Shown piece by piece: positions 19,827 through 54,409 of a stretch of 64,000 nucleotides of DNA. Each line of letters starts with the position of its first letter. Within the stretch, counting starts at the first letter, position 1. Made by a program: the position numbers and the translations under genes. The notes beneath the pieces are model-generated. The model was not told the origin of the DNA. It searched no databases and saw only the letters and a program-made list of their open reading frames with translations. This DNA is from Escherichia phage MN01. Where the stretch lies: sequence record MT129652.1. One strand, written 5' to 3'.

Positions 19827-20403
19827 AACATGGGAGCATCTGAAAAAGATGCCCTCCTTTCTTTATACAAAAGAAGACTTAACCCCTGAATCTCTACAAA
19901 AGATTGTAGACACAGCCAGGTATTCATTGCGTAAAGACCCAGGTCAAGACCGTGAGCAAGTCATGCAAAGATGTATGGTGGCTACAATGGCCGAACAAGC
20001 TATTGCTAAATGGACCTCCGGCTTTTTATGTGGCGGCGATGAAGATTACGATAATCCTTATTCCTTTGCATTTGATGTAGTTTCGAAGGAAGGAGTAAGA
20101 ATCGAAGTCAAGACCCATCAGTCTGGTTCCAAATGGATATCCGTGCATACTGGCCACCAGGGTGATTATCCACATGGTTACGGGATTAATCTTGGTCCTT
20201 TTATGCAGCACAAGCTTGCCGACCTTATGATTATGCTCGATGTAAAAGAGACTCTCAAAGGTTATAGATTTAAACCAAAATTCCTTGCTGGACCTGGTGC
20301 TTTCGTTCCTGAGTCTGGTCTTGTGCAGAAGTCACAAGGGGATGGCTGGTACCTCCGTTCTTGTTCAGAAGAAAAATTTCCCTATCACCGGTTTACAAGC
20401 TGA
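19810..20403 (+). CDS. putative PD-(D/E)xK nuclease in the slot of T4 denB (endonuclease IV)
   Basis: 197 aa (T4 DenB 185 aa); candidate catalytic signature FDVV...RIEVK; position downstream of rIIB as for denB. Confidence 0.45.
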   Translation: MIQKSKTWEHLKKMPSFLYTKEDLTPESLQKIVDTARYSLRKDPGQDREQVMQRCMVATMAEQAIAKWTSGFLCGGDEDYDNPYSFAFDVVSKEGVRIEVKTHQSGSKWISVHTGHQGDYPHGYGINLGPFMQHKLADLMIMLDVKETLKGYRFKPKFLAGPGAFVPESGLVQKSQGDGWYLRSCSEEKFPYHRFTS

Positions 20404-20448
20404 ACCAACCATGTAATAATGTCCTCACACCAACAAATGAGGACATTA

Positions 20449-20726
20449 TCATGGAACAAGTTACTACTCAAAACATCAAACAAATTCTTATTCAAGCACT
20501 CAAAAACAACAACATCAATTTTCCAACCCATGAAATTTTTGATGTGGTATTCAACGAAGTCCAGGGTCAAGTTGCATATTATGACGTTATCATTTATCTT
20601 TCAGAATTTGAAGTCTACCACCTGACTGAAATCGCTTTCTATCTCTATCGTGGGACTGCAGATTTTACCGGGGTCGTGAATGCAGTTGGTGCATATAAAG
20701 AAGTTAAAGAACAAATGCACAATTAA
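20449..20726 (+). CDS. hypothetical protein (92 aa)
   Basis: Internal ATG of track ORF 20361-20726 preceded by GAGGA SD. Confidence 0.35.
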
Positions 20727-20736
20727 TTAAAAAGTA

Positions 20737-20766
20737 GTGTACATCAGTATGGAGTCTATGTATAAT
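20737..20766 (+). promoter_or_regulatory. early-type promoter (GTGTACA -35, TATAAT -10 inside CAGTATGG/CCATACTG inverted repeat)
   Basis: Cassette family member. Confidence 0.55.
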
Positions 20767-20802
20767 GATTCCATACTGAGTTACCAAATACTGGAGAATA
20801 AA

Positions 20803-20958
20803 ATGAAACCTGCTCAATATGCAATGACTTTATACCTTGAAGTTAATGGCGATATTACTGAATTTTTTAAATTAATGCAACAGCGCGGAAAAAGTTTTGC
20901 AGTTACTGAGCGTCAATTTTACGCGTGTCGCAAAAATACATACAATCGTTATGCATGA
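20803..20958 (+). CDS. hypothetical protein (51 aa)
   Basis: ATG after CTGGAGAATAAA leader. Confidence 0.3.
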   Translation: MKPAQYAMTLYLEVNGDITEFFKLMQQRGKSFAVTERQFYACRKNTYNRYA

Positions 20959-20968
20959 GGAAAATAAA

Positions 20969-21229
20969 ATGGATATCAAATTATATTACGCTAAACACAA
21001 AGTTACAGGTAAAGTTGTTGCTGCTATGTACGATGCATCAGGTGAAGATGTTACTACGGAATTATCCCTTTCTAATTGTAGATTTCTTCGTCCTTTGCTA
21101 GCGTCAAAAAAAGATTTACAAAAACTTATCGACGGTAAATTAGATAATGTCGATGGTATAGATATTCATTATGAACTCCGCCATGCACTGACTGATGGGT
21201 TTATGGAAATAAAAGAGATAGTATTATGA
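20969..21229 (+). CDS. hypothetical protein (86 aa)
   Basis: Internal ATG of track ORF 20897-21229 after GAGGAAAATAAA. Confidence 0.35.
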   Translation: MDIKLYYAKHKVTGKVVAAMYDASGEDVTTELSLSNCRFLRPLLASKKDLQKLIDGKLDNVDGIDIHYELRHALTDGFMEIKEIVL

Positions 21230-21319
21230 GTAGCAAAACTTGGTGCCTTATCTGGATATTGTGTATCCCAGTAATTTGCGTTTGTTTTAGTTTATTATTA
21301 ATGAAACTTGCATAAAAGA

Positions 21320-21349
21320 GTATACATCTCCAGTGGTTGTAGTATAATG
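21320..21349 (+). promoter_or_regulatory. early-type promoter (GTATACA -35, TATAAT -10)
   Basis: Cassette variant, followed by TATCAACTACTGGAGATGATT-ATG. Confidence 0.45.
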
Positions 21350-21501
21350 AACCTATCAACTACTGGAGATGATTATGAAAAAGTTACTTAAAGCCATTTG
21401 GAACATGTTTGTACTGTTTGTTGTCCTGAGCATTTTCCCAATTGTTTTTATGATTGACCATGTACGTGTTTACTTTAACTATTTCTTTTGAGGATAATAT
21501 T

Positions 21502-21648
21502 ATGATAGTTATGAAAAAGTTTAAAGAATATCATTGCTATGAATGTGGCAAAAAGATTGATTCTATTCATTCATTAAGCGTCTTTTCTTTTGATAATTTA
21601 AACTATGCACACATTTGGTGCCTTCGTGGAATGACTAAATTTAACTGA
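21502..21648 (+). CDS. small Cys/His protein (48 aa, CYECGK...HIWC)
   Basis: Internal ATG of track ORF 21454-21648 after GAGGA. Confidence 0.3.
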   Translation: MIVMKKFKEYHCYECGKKIDSIHSLSVFSFDNLNYAHIWCLRGMTKFN

Positions 21649-21658
21649 GGATAATATT

Positions 21659-21865
21659 ATGAATTACAATTCACAATTTCAGAAATCCAATCGTCGCTTT
21701 GACTTTATGTTCAAGTTTATCATGGCGATGATTATCCTGATTTTCATTGGTGCCATTGCAATGATTGGTTTCCAGCTCTGGATTGCTGCTGAAGTGTTCA
21801 CACAAATCCAGGATAATGGTTTGAAGTCTGTTGTTGATGTAATTTGGAATGGAGCTAAGCAATGA
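21659..21865 (+). CDS. small membrane protein (68 aa)
   Basis: ORF in track; long hydrophobic helix. Confidence 0.35.
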   Translation: MNYNSQFQKSNRRFDFMFKFIMAMIILIFIGAIAMIGFQLWIAAEVFTQIQDNGLKSVVDVIWNGAKQ

Positions 21866-22107
21866 AACTTTTTAAAGACATTGCAGTTGGTGAAAAATTT
21901 GTCCTGGGTAATGGTCAACAACTGATTCGCATTTCGCCTTTGATGGATAACAGCGAGCGCCCTGTGCGCACTGAAAACTGTTTGGATTATCCTTTTTATC
22001 AGAAGCGTTTTGCAATTGAAAATAATACTGAGTGCTTCACAGTTGATGAACTGATGGAATCATCAGAAGAAGTTGACTTGTGGGATGGCGCAGTTGATGT
22101 AGAATAG
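21862..22107 (+). CDS. hypothetical protein (81 aa)
   Basis: ORF in track; ATGA-coupled to previous. Confidence 0.35.
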   Translation: MKLFKDIAVGEKFVLGNGQQLIRISPLMDNSERPVRTENCLDYPFYQKRFAIENNTECFTVDELMESSEEVDLWDGAVDVE

Positions 22108-22136
22108 TGTACAAACTTTTGGGAGCAGAGTATAAT
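22107..22136 (+). promoter_or_regulatory. early-type promoter (GTGTACA -35, TATAAT -10 inside GGGAGC/GTTCCC inverted repeat)
   Basis: Cassette family member. Confidence 0.55.
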
Positions 22137-22175
22137 GTTCCCAGTGGATAATAAAATTTAGCTGAGGAAATCATT

Positions 22176-22520
22176 ATGTCTAAAGTATTTTTTGGTAATC
22201 GCAACATTATGTTCTTTAAACAGATTAGCGTATCAGAAGCATTTGATTTAAGTTATTCAGGCGGTACAAAAGCTGTTAACCTTAAAAATTTGATGTCTGC
22301 AGAATTTGCATTCTATCAGGACCCTGAAACTGGTTTCTACAAATTTATTAAGTTCCGCATGACTATGGACCGCGATTATCGTGATGTTTATTATACAAGT
22401 TATGAAAGTGTTATCAATGCAATTCGTGAAGCTTATGGATTGGATTCGTTGTCGCTTGACCGCCTGTATAATGCAAGCCTTTACACCAGTGGATTTATTT
22501 TAGAACAGCTTCAAAAATAG
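22176..22520 (+). CDS. hypothetical protein (114 aa)
   Basis: ORF in track with GAGGAAATCATT-ATG context. Confidence 0.4.
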   Translation: MSKVFFGNRNIMFFKQISVSEAFDLSYSGGTKAVNLKNLMSAEFAFYQDPETGFYKFIKFRMTMDRDYRDVYYTSYESVINAIREAYGLDSLSLDRLYNASLYTSGFILEQLQK

Positions 22521-22549
22521 TGTACAAACTCTTGGGGTCTGAGTATAAT
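22520..22549 (+). promoter_or_regulatory. early-type promoter (GTGTACA -35, TATAAT -10 inside GGGGTC/GACCCC inverted repeat)
   Basis: Cassette family member. Confidence 0.55.
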
Positions 22550-22593
22550 GACCCCACTGGAGCACAAAACTTTAACTTACTGAGGAAATTAAT

Positions 22594-23043
22594 ATGAATA
22601 CTTACATGACCCGTCGTGACGTACTGAATGCTGGCGCTACTACTGTTGCTTATATCCATAATGGTAATTATGTTGCAGGTCGCCCGACTAAAGAAGCTAT
22701 CACTCAACCAGGTTTTTATTTCGTGGTTAAAGGTGAAGGTGAATCACGTATTGTTGCCGCACGTTTTTATGTTGGTAACCAACGTTCACAACAAGGGTTT
22801 GACACTGTATTAAGTCACATCCGCAAACAGCGTTCGCAACTGTCTCGCACAATGGCGAACAATGGGGTTATCTATGAAGTCCTGTTTGTCCCAGTTTCTA
22901 AAATGAAACCTCTGACAACTGGTTATGGTAAAGGTCAAATTGCGATGGCGTTCACTCGCTCACATAGTTCTGATTGCCAGACCCTTTCAGAAATGAATCG
23001 CATGCTTGCTGATAACTTTAAATTCATTCTGCAGAGTTATTAA
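22594..23043 (+). CDS. ndd: Ndd (nucleoid disruption protein)
   Basis: 149 aa; close match to T4 Ndd as remembered: [53 protein letters not shown]. Confidence 0.8.
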
Positions 23044-23044
23044 T

Positions 23045-23125
23045 ATGAGTAATTTCCATAATGAACACGTGATGCAATGGCATCGTCATAATCTGAAATT
23101 AACTGGCGTCTTTGGACGCCCTTGA
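23045..23125 (+). CDS. stp: Stp (suppressor of three-prime phosphatase; 26-aa peptide)
   Basis: Self-translated [26 protein letters not shown], near-identical to T4 Stp as remembered; not in ORF track. Confidence 0.8.
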
Positions 23126-23132
23126 GGAAAAT

Positions 23133-23285
23133 ATGAAATTTGTTCATGGCGTAGCTTTTTTCTGTTGGTCATTTTTATTTGTTGGAACATTAATAACTGG
23201 AGAAACTTCAGTATTTCTGCAGTCAACAGCTCAAGGTGTATTAGCGACTTTAACACTATTTAAATTATTGGATAAAAATGATTAA
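23133..23285 (+). CDS. ac: small membrane protein in the position of T4 ac (acridine sensitivity)
   Basis: 50 aa hydrophobic ORF immediately after stp; T4 ac is 51 aa in the same position. Confidence 0.45.
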   Translation: MKFVHGVAFFCWSFLFVGTLITGETSVFLQSTAQGVLATLTLFKLLDKND

Positions 23286-23418
23286 GAAAATCCTGGGCTA
23301 CTCGTTAGCCCTTGCTGCCTTATTGGTGGCACTGTATTATGGAGTTGTGTTTGCATTAGTGCAGGTTGTGCTTTTTATTTCTGATGCTATAATGGCAGTA
23401 CATTCGTTAATCTGGTAA
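23278..23418 (+). CDS. small membrane protein (46 aa)
   Basis: Self-translated hydrophobic ORF between ac and gene 52. Confidence 0.3.
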   Translation: MIKKILGYSLALAALLVALYYGVVFALVQVVLFISDAIMAVHSLIW

Positions 23419-23426
23419 GGTGATAT

Positions 23427-24806
23427 ATGTCTGACGTTTTAAGTATGATGTCCAAACAGTTCAGTGATTCTATGGGGACCCTTAACCCACGCAGTTTAAA
23501 AGACATTATTGATGTGGAAGCATTGTCATATGCTATCTACACTGTGGAAGGTCGTGCCATCCCAAACATGATTGATGGTTTTAAACCAGTTCACAGATTT
23601 GTTATGGCGAGAGCATTAGACCTGGCTCGCGGTGATAAGAATAAATTCCATAAGGTTGCATCCATCGCAGGGGGCGTAGCTGATTATGGTTATCACCATG
23701 GCGAAGCATCAGCGGAAGAAGCAACTTCTGGTCTGGTCGCAACATATAAAAATGAATATCCTATGTTTGATGGGCAAGGTAACTTTGGTTCCAGAATGGT
23801 TCCAGAAGCATCATCAGCTCGTTATGTATTCGCAAGGGTTTCAAAGAACTTTTACAACCTGTTTAAGGATACAGAATATGCTCCGGTCCATCCTGATGAA
23901 GAACATAAGCCTCCTGCTTTTTATCTTCCTGTTATTCCTACTGTATTACTTAACGCCACTTCTGGGATTGCTGTTGGCTTTGCTACTGATATCCTTCCTC
24001 ATTCGTTCCAGGACGTCAAGGAAGCTGTTAAAGCTATCGTGGAAGGTCGTGAGCCGGTTGCTCCGAAAGTAAAATATCCAGAATTCCGTGGTAAAGTTGT
24101 TGAGCTGGAAGAGCCCGGTAAGTATGAACTTCATGGCACGTACAAAATGACCTCCAGGACTCAAATGGAAATTACTGAAATCCCAGTTCAATGGAACCTG
24201 GAAAAGTATACAAGTAAAATCCTGGACCCGCTGGAAGAGAAAGGTTTTATCACCTGGAAAGATAACTGCGGCGAGCATGGTTTTGGGTTTAAGATTAAAT
24301 TCCGCAAAGAATACAAGTTGGATGGCACTGAAGAAGAGAATCATGAGAAAATCATGAAAGACTTTGGTCTGATTGAGAAGCTCTCCCAGAACTTAACTGT
24401 GCTTAACCACAAAGGCAAATTGGCTGAATATACCAACACGCTTGACCTGATTCGCGATTTCGTTGATGTCCGTAAGACTTATGTTCAAGTGCGAATTGAC
24501 AGTAAGATTAAAGAAACTGAAGCGGCATTTAAACTGGCCCGGGCAAAAGTCTTCTTTATTAAAGAAGTGATTGATGGTAAGGTTGTTATCCAGGGGAAAC
24601 CTCGTAAGAAGTTGATTGAGGAGCTCCAGGCGAGTGAAATATATGGCGATTATGCAGAGAAGTTAGTGGCGATGAACATCTACCATATGACCTCTGATGA
24701 AGCTAAGAAGCTTGCGGATGAAGCTAAGGCTAAGAAAGCTGAGCATGAGTACTGGAAGACAACTGACGTTAAAACTGAATACCTTAATGATTTGGAGGCT
24801 CTATGA
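23427..24806 (+). CDS. 52: DNA topoisomerase II medium (GyrA-like, DNA-cleaving) subunit gp52
   Basis: 459 aa (T4 442 aa); N-terminal winged-helix/catalytic region DGFKPVHRF...ASIAGGVADYGYHHGEAS similar to T4 gp52. Confidence 0.9.
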   Translation: MSDVLSMMSKQFSDSMGTLNPRSLKDIIDVEALSYAIYTVEGRAIPNMIDGFKPVHRFVMARALDLARGDKNKFHKVASIAGGVADYGYHHGEASAEEATSGLVATYKNEYPMFDGQGNFGSRMVPEASSARYVFARVSKNFYNLFKDTEYAPVHPDEEHKPPAFYLPVIPTVLLNATSGIAVGFATDILPHSFQDVKEAVKAIVEGREPVAPKVKYPEFRGKVVELEEPGKYELHGTYKMTSRTQMEITEIPVQWNLEKYTSKILDPLEEKGFITWKDNCGEHGFGFKIKFRKEYKLDGTEEENHEKIMKDFGLIEKLSQNLTVLNHKGKLAEYTNTLDLIRDFVDVRKTYVQVRIDSKIKETEAAFKLARAKVFFIKEVIDGKVVIQGKPRKKLIEELQASEIYGDYAEKLVAMNIYHMTSDEAKKLADEAKAKKAEHEYWKTTDVKTEYLNDLEAL

Positions 24807-24897
24807 GTTTTGGAGTTGAGTTTGCATTGCTTTGTATTTTCGCGGCAATCGCAGGTGTGATTGTTGGTATGTTTATTGGTAATAAGATAGATAAAGA

Positions 24898-24925
24898 CTA
24901 GGACCCTTCGGGGTCCTTTTTTATT
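24898..24925 (+). terminator. rho-independent terminator (AGGACCC-TTCG-GGGTCCT + T-tract)
   Basis: UUCG tetraloop hairpin followed by TTTTTT. Confidence 0.6.
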
Positions 24926-24946
24926 TTAAAATATTTTAAAAAAGTA

Positions 24947-24976
24947 GTGTACATGACCCTTGACCTGATGCATAAT
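24947..24976 (+). promoter_or_regulatory. early-type promoter (GTGTACA -35, CATAAT -10)
   Basis: Cassette family member with CATACTGAGTTACAC leader. Confidence 0.55.
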
Positions 24977-25025
24977 GATTCCATACTGAGTTACACAATG
25001 AATCACAAAAACTTTGGAGAATAAA

Positions 25026-25241
25026 ATGTTTACTGCACAACAGAATGAAGGTCAAGAATACATTAACGCTAAATTCAAATCCAATAAAGAAGCTTGCTAT
25101 TACTACTTTGACATGTTCAAACTGGCGAATTCTAAAGAAGAACGTAAACAAGCGATTGATGTTATTGTTTCCACTTCCCATATGAAACGTACTGTGGTAC
25201 AATCATATGCATCAAATTACATGAAATCTATTAAGGGATAA
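25026..25241 (+). CDS. hypothetical protein (71 aa)
   Basis: ATG after CTTTGGAGAATAAA leader; internal start of track ORF 25014-25241. Confidence 0.4.
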   Translation: MFTAQQNEGQEYINAKFKSNKEACYYYFDMFKLANSKEERKQAIDVIVSTSHMKRTVVQSYASNYMKSIKG

Positions 25242-25243
25242 TT

Positions 25244-25852
25244 ATGAACAAGCTAAATTATATCGTTAAATGCTCCCAGAACGCTCTACATGAGACTGAT
25301 GTTAATGCTCTGGTGTTTGTATACAAAAACAACTTCGTGAGTCCAGAGGTTGTTTTAGGCCAGCAGAACACGTCAATTGATAGCGTACAGACATTGTTGA
25401 ATAACAACTATGTTGAAGCTTCTGGTGATGGTTTGATGATTACAGAAAAAGGTGTTGACCTTATTCTGGATGCAGCAGAACTGTGGGCGAATGAAAATAA
25501 TCCTGACCTTCTGGAAGTGAAGAAGACAAGAACAAAACGCGGTGTGACTGATGAAATGGAAGCGACTGCAGAATATATCAAAGAGCAATTGTTGTCTATT
25601 GGTATTGACTTTAAGAGCATTTCAGAAGACCGCAGCAATCTGATTGTGAAGTTCAAACGTGTCAAGACACTAAAACAGATTGATGTGCGTCGTGATGGTC
25701 AGATTCGTGTGCATGCGTATAATACTGAACAAAAGATAGTAAAACAGTTTACAGACGTGGGATTTAGCGTTAAAGTAGGTGGATTGAATACCTACATTGA
25801 CAATCATATGTCAACTGAAAACATTCAACATGTTATTAACATCTTAAAGTGA
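25244..25852 (+). CDS. motA: MotA, activator of middle-period transcription
   Basis: 202 aa (T4 211 aa); SGDGLMITEKGVDLILDAAELWANENNPDLL parallels T4 MotA SGDGLIITGEAQDIISNAATLYAQENAPELL. Confidence 0.8.
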   Translation: MNKLNYIVKCSQNALHETDVNALVFVYKNNFVSPEVVLGQQNTSIDSVQTLLNNNYVEASGDGLMITEKGVDLILDAAELWANENNPDLLEVKKTRTKRGVTDEMEATAEYIKEQLLSIGIDFKSISEDRSNLIVKFKRVKTLKQIDVRRDGQIRVHAYNTEQKIVKQFTDVGFSVKVGGLNTYIDNHMSTENIQHVINILK

Positions 25853-25862
25853 GGAAATTATT

Positions 25863-26039
25863 ATGAACATCTATCTGATTAAGTACTTAAAAGATGGTAA
25901 AGAACGTGATTACCAAATCCCCGCAAAAAATGAATATGATGCGTGCGTTCGCCTTGGTCAGATTCATGGCGATGACCGTGAATATCGCGATGATGTTGAA
26001 ATTGAAATCCAATCTGTAACTTTGAAAGTGAGAGGCTAA
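25863..26039 (+). CDS. small hypothetical protein (58 aa)
   Basis: Self-translated ORF with GAGGAAATTATT-ATG context; not in track. Confidence 0.3.
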   Translation: MNIYLIKYLKDGKERDYQIPAKNEYDACVRLGQIHGDDREYRDDVEIEIQSVTLKVRG

Positions 26040-49541: not shown

Positions 49542-49954
49542 CTATGAAACAAATCGCTGACGAATACAGTTTTATAAAATACGCGGAGTTAGAGTTAGTC
49601 GATGGTAAAATCCCTATCCTTACTCTCGCAAACAAGAAAAATGTTATCTATGCTATTTCAGTTGATGATGAACTAGTGTATATTGGTAAGACGAACAACC
49701 TTAAGAAGCGTATCAACTATTACCGGACTGCAATTAACCGAATCGAACAGACGAGTGATTCAAACAAATCCCGGATGATACATGAAGCTTTACAAGAAGG
49801 CAAAAAGGTGGTATTCTATGCACGACAATGTTTCAATCTGTCAATGACCAATGAACTTGGTACGATGTCAGTCGAAACGATGTCTCTGGAAGAGCCGATG
49901 TTCATCAAGCTTTTTAATCCCCCGTGGAATTACCAACATAAGGTGAAGAAATGA
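49538..49954 (+). CDS. denA: endonuclease II (GIY-YIG family)
   Basis: 138 aa (T4 136 aa); GIY-YIG-like VIYAISVDDELVYIGKT...R, position between nrdB and rnlA as in T4. Confidence 0.7.
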   Translation: MSMKQIADEYSFIKYAELELVDGKIPILTLANKKNVIYAISVDDELVYIGKTNNLKKRINYYRTAINRIEQTSDSNKSRMIHEALQEGKKVVFYARQCFNLSMTNELGTMSVETMSLEEPMFIKLFNPPWNYQHKVKK

Positions 49955-51087
49955 TTGAATTATATGATAACTTAATGAAGCTTTGCGCCGAATCTGATAA
50001 AGGTAAGTTTTTCTATACGGATTTTGTTTCTCCATTTGAAACTAAGTTCCGCATCTTTAGCTATAACTATGCTTCCTATAGTGATTGGCTCCTTGATGAT
50101 GCGCTGGAGTGCCGTGGCATTATGTTTGAAATGGGTGACAATGGTCCAGTTCGCATTGCTGCTCGTCCTATGGAAAAATTCTTTAATCTGGGTGAGAATC
50201 CAATGACCATGGACCTTAACCTTGATGAGGTTGTCCTGGTTACTGCAAAAGCTGATGGTAGCTTGGTTTCTACTTATATGGACCAGACTAATATCGCCTT
50301 TAAATCTAAAGGGTCAATCAAAAGTTCCCAAGCTGCTGAATCCTTGCAGGTGTTTAAACAAGAGCATCGCAGTGCATTCAGGGCTCGCGTAACTGAAATT
50401 ACTGAAGCTGGTTATACATGCAATATGGAATATGTTGCACCGACCAACCGCATTGTTTTGCCTTACCAGGAACGTGACCTGATTTTGCTGAACGTTCGTC
50501 ATAATGAAACGGGTGAATATATCCCCTATCAGGAACTGTTCAAAGATGCTGCACTCCGTCCTTTCCTGGTTGAAGCATATGACCCGGCAACCATTGAGAA
50601 TGTTCGCGGTATGAAAGAGATTGAAGGCTTCGTCTATGAGATGGCTAACGGTCAGAAGTTCAAGATGAAAACAGAATGGTATTGTGCTCTGCATCATACT
50701 AAAGACTCCATTAATAATAATGAGCGACTGTTTGAAGTTGTTGTTGCTGGCGGGGCAGATGATGTTATTGCCATGTTTACTGGCGATACTTATGCTCGTG
50801 AAAAAGTTACTGCCTTTACTGTAACGCATCTGGATTATCTGTCCAATACACTGGGATTGTTGCTTGATGCTCAGAAACAATTGGCAGGAAAAGACCGACG
50901 CGAGTTTGCGATTAAAGGTCAAGAGTTATGCAAACCATACCCGGGATTGTTCTCCGTATTAATGAACACCTATCAACGCCCACAGGAAACTGAACAAACG
51001 ATTGCTCAAATCAATAAAGTTTTCCTTAAAAATCATAAACTTTACATTCCGTTGGACTACCAAGCGGAAGTAATCCTTCCTGAATAA
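49951..51087 (+). CDS. rnlA: RNA ligase 1
   Basis: 378 aa (T4 374 aa); strong similarity to T4 Rnl1 as remembered (RIFSYNYASYSDWLL.DALECRGIMFEM, KADGSLVSTY nucleotidyltransferase lysine motif, APTNRIVL.YQE). Confidence 0.85.
   Translation: MIELYDNLMKLCAESDKGKFFYTDFVSPFETKFRIFSYNYASYSDWLLDDALECRGIMFEMGDNGPVRIAARPMEKFFNLGENPMTMDLNLDEVVLVTAKADGSLVSTYMDQTNIAFKSKGSIKSSQAAESLQVFKQEHRSAFRARVTEITEAGYTCNMEYVAPTNRIVLPYQERDLILLNVRHNETGEYIPYQELFKDAALRPFLVEAYDPATIENVRGMKEIEGFVYEMANGQKFKMKTEWYCALHHTKDSINNNERLFEVVVAGGADDVIAMFTGDTYAREKVTAFTVTHLDYLSNTLGLLLDAQKQLAGKDRREFAIKGQELCKPYPGLFSVLMNTYQRPQETEQTIAQINKVFLKNHKLYIPLDYQAEVILPE

Positions 51088-53190: not shown

Positions 53191-54408
<1,218 letters not shown>

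Positions 54409-54409
<1 letters not shown>

Follow-up and report, generated by a model that had tools for sequence, protein, structure and literature searches.

The window, by which we mean the whole 64,000-nucleotide stretch of Escherichia phage MN01 (MT129652.1) that was analysed, belongs to a T4-like phage from Gaprivervirus, the VR7/SP18 group. Within it, the genes ndd, stp, ac, 52.1 and 52 follow one another on one strand in the same order as in T4, and stp, an 81-nt gene, lies between ndd and the ac-like reading frame. The features of the locus are as follows:

22521..22549, plus strand: promoter-like sequence TGTACA-N17-TATAAT, 45 nt upstream of ndd (consensus scan, 10/12)
22594..23043, plus strand: ndd, encoding the nucleoid disruption protein, directly upstream of stp (Pfam PF06591, Phage_T4_Ndd, 230 bits)
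23033..23044, plus strand: weak ribosome-binding stretch with AGAG 8 nt ahead of the stp ATG, read from the sequence
23045..23125, plus strand: stp gene, "WH" allele, 26 codons and a stop (translation and Pfam/PHROG profile matches)
23105..23120, plus strand: RNA hairpin GGCGUC-UUUG-GACGCC with a 6-bp stem, in stp codons 21-26
23133..23285, plus strand: ac-like small membrane ORF of 50 aa, the downstream neighbour of stp (PHROG 2501, E=2e-23)
23278..23418, plus strand: 52.1, predicted membrane protein of 46 aa (Pfam DUF7396, 71.8 bits; 87% identity to T4 gp52.1)
23427..24806, plus strand: gene 52, DNA topoisomerase II medium subunit (99.3% identity to VR7 gp52 over 444 aa)
24900..24917, plus strand: terminator-like hairpin followed by a T-run, strong and bidirectional, downstream of gene 52

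The stp reading frame is free-standing, with its own start (ATG at 23045) and stop (TGA at 23123-23125). The encoded peptide matches the anticodon nuclease activator family PF08133 (Nuclease_act) at 55.3 bits (cut-off 25, E=4e-15, residues 1-25 of 26), and PHROG 6763 with E=2e-19 over residues 1-26 of 26; both scores are far beyond chance. Together with the T4 gene order, these matches bear out the first-pass annotation, which had recognised the ORF as the gene for the T4 Stp peptide, and the small cluster of stp, ac and a short membrane ORF that it had placed upstream of gene 52 is indeed present, arranged as in T4. The whole window was scanned for a second stp copy of the kind found in phage JS98, and only the one copy was found. 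The weak ribosome-binding stretch overlaps the ndd stop codon (TAA, 23041-23043), and the stp ATG lies one base past that stop. The equivalent junction of T4 is a TAATG overlap, with AGG at a similar distance. This arrangement of the ndd stop and the stp start suggests that translation of stp may be coupled to that of ndd. Two minus-strand ORFs overlapping stp (23024..23089 and 23040..23147) were rejected as non-coding, as relatives differ here only by changes that are silent in the plus frame.

Ndd is 98.7% identical to its VR7 counterpart and 61% identical to T4 Ndd, and the best DNA match to the stretch from ndd to gene 52 is Escherichia phage pEC-M719-6WT.2 (98%). The ac-like ORF shares 39% identity over 44 aa with T4 Ac (E=7e-6) and is annotated as acridine resistance in the closest relatives. 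The slot that it fills is a variable cassette: VR7 carries an unrelated 55-aa membrane ORF there (L062 40770-40937), and EAWsc9 an extra 52-aa membrane ORF (L059 1332-1750), together with a duplication of the point where the 3' end of stp meets the 5' end of 52.1. On the other side of stp, an extra ORF of ~57 aa, absent from the window, separates it from ndd in TH41 (L060), JS98 (L019) and ESCO10 (L064); this ORF ends in ..VYAKCVV[SYC] and overlaps the stp start. Gene 52 may start at 23472, as VR7 annotates it. From its consensus match, the sequence at 22521..22549 is a candidate early promoter for an ndd-stp-ac-52.1-52 unit, and the hairpin at 24900..24917 is a candidate end of that unit. The motif TGTACA-N17-[TC]ATAAT is repeated on the plus strand at 20738, 22108, 22521 and 24948, ahead of several genes of the ndd region. 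An Rfam search of 20000..26000 gave no matches, and no tRNA genes were found in the window.

For comparison with T4, we translated the stp gene of NC_000866 (165505-165585, product NP_049878). The T4 sequence that the first-pass annotation gave agrees with this translation exactly, and the substitutions that it listed are real on alignment of the two peptides. T4 Stp and the Stp of the window have the same length of 26 residues and are identical at residues 1-11, 14, 16-18 and 21-25; they differ at six positions, F12W, Y13H, N15H, T19L, K20T and Q26P. At the codon level there are 6 non-synonymous and 4 synonymous changes, and several of the replacements need two or three base changes. The likeness extends beyond the peptide, as T4 also has stp between ndd and ac, a hairpin at the 3' end of stp and the repair genes pseT and rnlA.

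T4 Stp is necessary and sufficient for activating the latent PrrC anticodon nuclease, and it protects against restriction by EcoprrI and EcoR124I, which are type IC enzymes, whereas type IA enzymes are not inhibited (PMC3014915). The N-proximal 18 residues carry both activities, suppressor mutations abolishing nuclease activation cluster at residues 4-14, and removal of the last eight codons has a moderate effect only (PMC3014915). In a small early sample of nine T-even-type phages, these 18 residues hardly varied (PMC3014915). The inhibitory mechanism was still called unknown in a 2025 review (PMC12707154), and T4 Stp, used as a query against solved structures, returned no match. A 2026 preprint on Druantia was set aside, as its subject is the host protein StpA and not Stp.

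Measured against this map, 15 of the N-proximal 18 residues of the window Stp are identical to T4. The replacements T19L, K20T and Q26P fall in the C-terminal tail that is reported as largely dispensable in T4. The other three, F12W, Y13H and N15H, lie in or beside the residue 4-14 cluster and depart from the sequence that the nine T-even-type phages keep almost without exception over residues 1-18. Because positions 12, 13 and 15 are in or next to this cluster, full functional equivalence to T4 Stp should not be assumed.

The wider Stp family provides a second measure of these positions. Viral contigs were scanned with a degenerate DNA pattern encoding the HNEHVM core, and 52 of them yielded Stp-like ORFs, belonging to T4-like phages, Kagunavirus, Tlsvirus, Henuseptimavirus and Webervirus. 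The peptide of Kagunavirus RP180 is almost identical to that of T4. The Tlsvirus peptides read MSSWHNEHVMQFYR[HQY]RIKK..., a Henuseptimavirus peptide is seen in phage N5822, and the Webervirus peptides contain ...SNYHNEHVMRWHWQKLK... and carry a 9-residue N-terminal extension. Stp-like peptides of T1-like phages were noted previously (PMC4319613). Across 18 distinct family peptides, S2, N6, E7, H8, V9, M10 and K18 are invariant, position 12 is either F or W (9 each), and positions 13, 15, 16 and all those past 18 vary freely. The T1-like siphoviruses (TLS, Stevie; Tlsvirus, Henuseptimavirus, Webervirus) and RP180 share with the window Stp the core [FWY]HNEHVM[QR][FW] and K18, and W12 and H15 also occur among them, but the tails of these peptides are unrelated, the genomic context differs and the phage DNA carries no modification. 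A Kagunavirus stp copy keeps the residues GVFGK without any hairpin. A full-text literature search for the motif HNEHVM found no paper that prints it.

The window Stp retains all of the family-invariant residues as well as the aromatic residues at positions 4 and 12, and its six changes fall at variable positions, including 12, 13 and 15 in the N-proximal part. Retained activity is the default expectation because the changes are confined to positions that vary in the family while the invariant residues are all kept. We consider it probable that the ORF is a functional orthologue of T4 stp, acting as in T4, in the standard allele of VR7/SP18-like phages. By analogy with T4, stp would belong to an early transcript shared with ndd, ac, 52.1 and gene 52, and its translation would probably be coupled to the ndd stop. 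Its 26-residue product would then bind a type IC restriction-modification complex of the host, one like EcoprrI or EcoR124I, and stop DNA cleavage. In hosts that carry prrC in the type IC locus, the same binding would release the latent tRNA-Lys anticodon nuclease. Any departure from T4 Stp would be one of partner preference or affinity, and not of kind.

The damage inflicted by PrrC would be repaired by phage PseT and RNA ligase 1. In T4, PseT heals the PrrC damage and RnlA seals it. The window encodes both enzymes, as the first-pass annotation had said of pnk and rnl:

49951..51087, plus strand: rnlA (RNA ligase 1) (tblastn with VR7 RnlA, 92% identity over 378 aa)
53504..54409, plus strand: pseT (polynucleotide kinase/phosphatase) (tblastn with VR7 PseT, 78% identity over 302 aa)

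The presence of pseT and rnlA fits PrrC activation by the window Stp but is not diagnostic of it. PseT is only 78% identical to its VR7 counterpart, against 92-99% for Ndd, gp52 and RnlA, and this lower identity suggests a mosaic exchange at the pseT locus.

The WH peptide is not peculiar to MN01. Using tblastn against 50,697 phage records, we found the identical peptide in 39 of them, while the T4-type (FY) peptide is present in about 440. Within Gaprivervirus the WH peptide occurs in VR7, VR20, VR25, VR26, SP18, RZ, several TH isolates, UPEC01 and UPEC07, and within Dhakavirus in JS98, IME281, EcWhh-1 and Esco_phi_B-01. RefSeq already names it as Stp: in VR25 (NC_028925) and JS98 (NC_010105) the product is given as "activator of host PrrC lysyl-tRNA endonuclease", although many deposited genomes leave the 81-nt gene without annotation. 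Because the identical peptide is found in 39 records, WH is the normal allele of the genus and no feature of this phage alone; it is known and annotated as the standard allele of VR7/SP18-like Gaprivervirus and of part of the JS98 group (Dhakavirus). The Stp of VR25 is identical in amino-acid sequence to that of the window and has the same flanks. JS98 encodes the identical peptide too, but there the ~57-aa ORF stands between ndd and stp, and a start-less T4-type stp remnant lies downstream; the window has neither.

Eleven copies of the WH allele resolve into six nucleotide haplotypes with eight variable sites, and all eight are synonymous third-codon positions. This pattern indicates purifying selection on the Stp peptide in the plus frame: stp is a real coding gene that is maintained at the protein level.

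The alternative that survives best, which takes up a suggestion of the first-pass annotation, holds that W12-H13-H15-L19-T20 is an adaptive haplotype, by which Stp was retargeted to another type I enzyme variant or kept its anti-restriction activity while giving a weaker signal for unleashing PrrC. Such a shift is possible because positions 12, 13 and 15 lie in the functional region, because there is a mild excess of replacements between the alleles, and because some Dhakavirus phages carry start-less T4-type remnants; on balance we think it unlikely. Half of the six changes (12, 13 and 15) are within the functionally mapped N-proximal 18 residues. They are, however, accompanied by C-terminal changes in the largely dispensable tail and by full retention of the invariant residues, and F-to-W and Y-to-H conservatively exchange one ring for another at family-variable positions. 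A McDonald–Kreitman-type count gives 8 replacement and 2 silent fixed differences against 6 replacement and 13 silent within alleles (Fisher p=0.02), a mild excess that is fragile, the gene being tiny and the count drawing on no population sample, and the within-allele replacement polymorphism comes mostly from one divergent tail of the fFiEco06 type. The FY and WH alleles are discrete, with few intermediates (P8 with H15Y, ESCO10 with N15 and I19), and in JS98, IME281 and NC-G an intact WH gene sits next to a decaying, start-less T4-type copy, which fits allele replacement. Yet the listed hosts are the same for both alleles (E. coli, Shigella and Yersinia), and WH-allele phages still have pseT and rnlA. 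If the peptide were helical, positions 12, 15 and 19 would align with F4 and H8 on one face, with 13 and 20 on an adjacent stripe.

A broader version of this proposal is that FY and WH are co-adapted specificity alleles, exchanged as small cassettes between T4-like genera and each tuned to a different type I variant or to the avoidance of PrrC; we hold this to be doubtful, slightly more so than the shift itself. If it were true, positions 12, 13, 15, 19 and 20 would represent a natural specificity code of a 26-residue inhibitor.

Another explanation is that stp is conserved for its RNA, namely for the 3' hairpin and for translational coupling from ndd to ac, with the peptide as a by-product. 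The hairpin has a predicted folding energy of -10.8 kcal/mol (z=-3.2) and ends 3 nt upstream of the ac Shine-Dalgarno sequence GAGGA (23124-23128), just before the ac ribosome-binding site. The stem is shared with T4 stp, where a C(UUCG)G tetraloop replaces the UUUG loop of the window, and two stem polymorphisms in other WH haplotypes retain pairing as G.U. But the hairpin spans the last 6 codons only, whereas conservation peaks over codons 1-11, a part without any structure, and is there one of amino acids with third positions free. Siphoviruses that lack the hairpin and have other flanks also retain the peptide core, and in T4 genetics the peptide is active from a plasmid (PMC3014915). We regard a primary role as RNA as very improbable.

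Least credible of all is a chance ORF or decaying pseudogene that is unexpressed in this phage: the gene is only 81 nt long, has a weak ribosome-binding stretch, is left unannotated in many genomes and has start-less remnants in related phages, but its start and stop are intact, it is full-length, identical in 39 records and varies only synonymously, and true remnants look unlike it, having lost the ATG and gained extra replacements such as V9A and N15I.

The preferred reading remains a functional T4-like Stp in its standard genus allele. Taken alone, the stp of the window matters little, being an orthologue of a classic T4 gene whose exact peptide is already public under that name. Stp itself is among the smallest known anti-restriction factors and a textbook trigger of a guard-type abortive-infection nuclease. 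The phage and plasmid anti-restriction proteins Ocr, ArdA and ArdB resemble it in their general role, in that they block type I restriction enzymes, but they have no sequence relationship to it; Ocr and ArdA mimic DNA, are acidic and larger, and act broadly on type I enzymes, whereas the short Stp peptide is basic and type IC-specific. The two natural alleles, with three differences in the mapped region, together with the siphovirus variants constitute a natural experiment on which residues govern target choice and which govern PrrC triggering.

Several relatives of the window phage carry stp copies in other states. In JS98 (L019 3875), IME281 (L016 6470) and NC-G (L065 877), an intact WH stp is accompanied by a second, T4-type stp that has no start codon. 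The start-less copy lies ~265-295 bp downstream of the WH gene, past an ac-like ORF and a 52.1 fragment, and the one in NC-G has the further replacements V9A and N15I. These Dhakavirus double copies look like the scar of a cassette replacement of one stp allele by the other. The intact stp genes of NC-G (L065 601-678) and ESCO10 (L064 601-675) have the replacement H5Y at a residue that is otherwise constant family-wide; it falls within the stretch in which suppressor mutations of T4 stp prevent activation of the nuclease, and these copies could be natural attenuated alleles.

Outside the T4-like phages, the Stp-like ORF of Tempevirinae (contigs L022, L025, L027-L029, L036, L046, L050, L054 and L055) lies 0.5-1.3 kb upstream of a gene for a 178-aa protein annotated as "polynucleotide kinase". 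This protein matches only the phosphatase half (~158-301) of T4-type PseT. PHROG 28068, listed as of unknown function, corresponds to the Webervirus Stp-like peptides.
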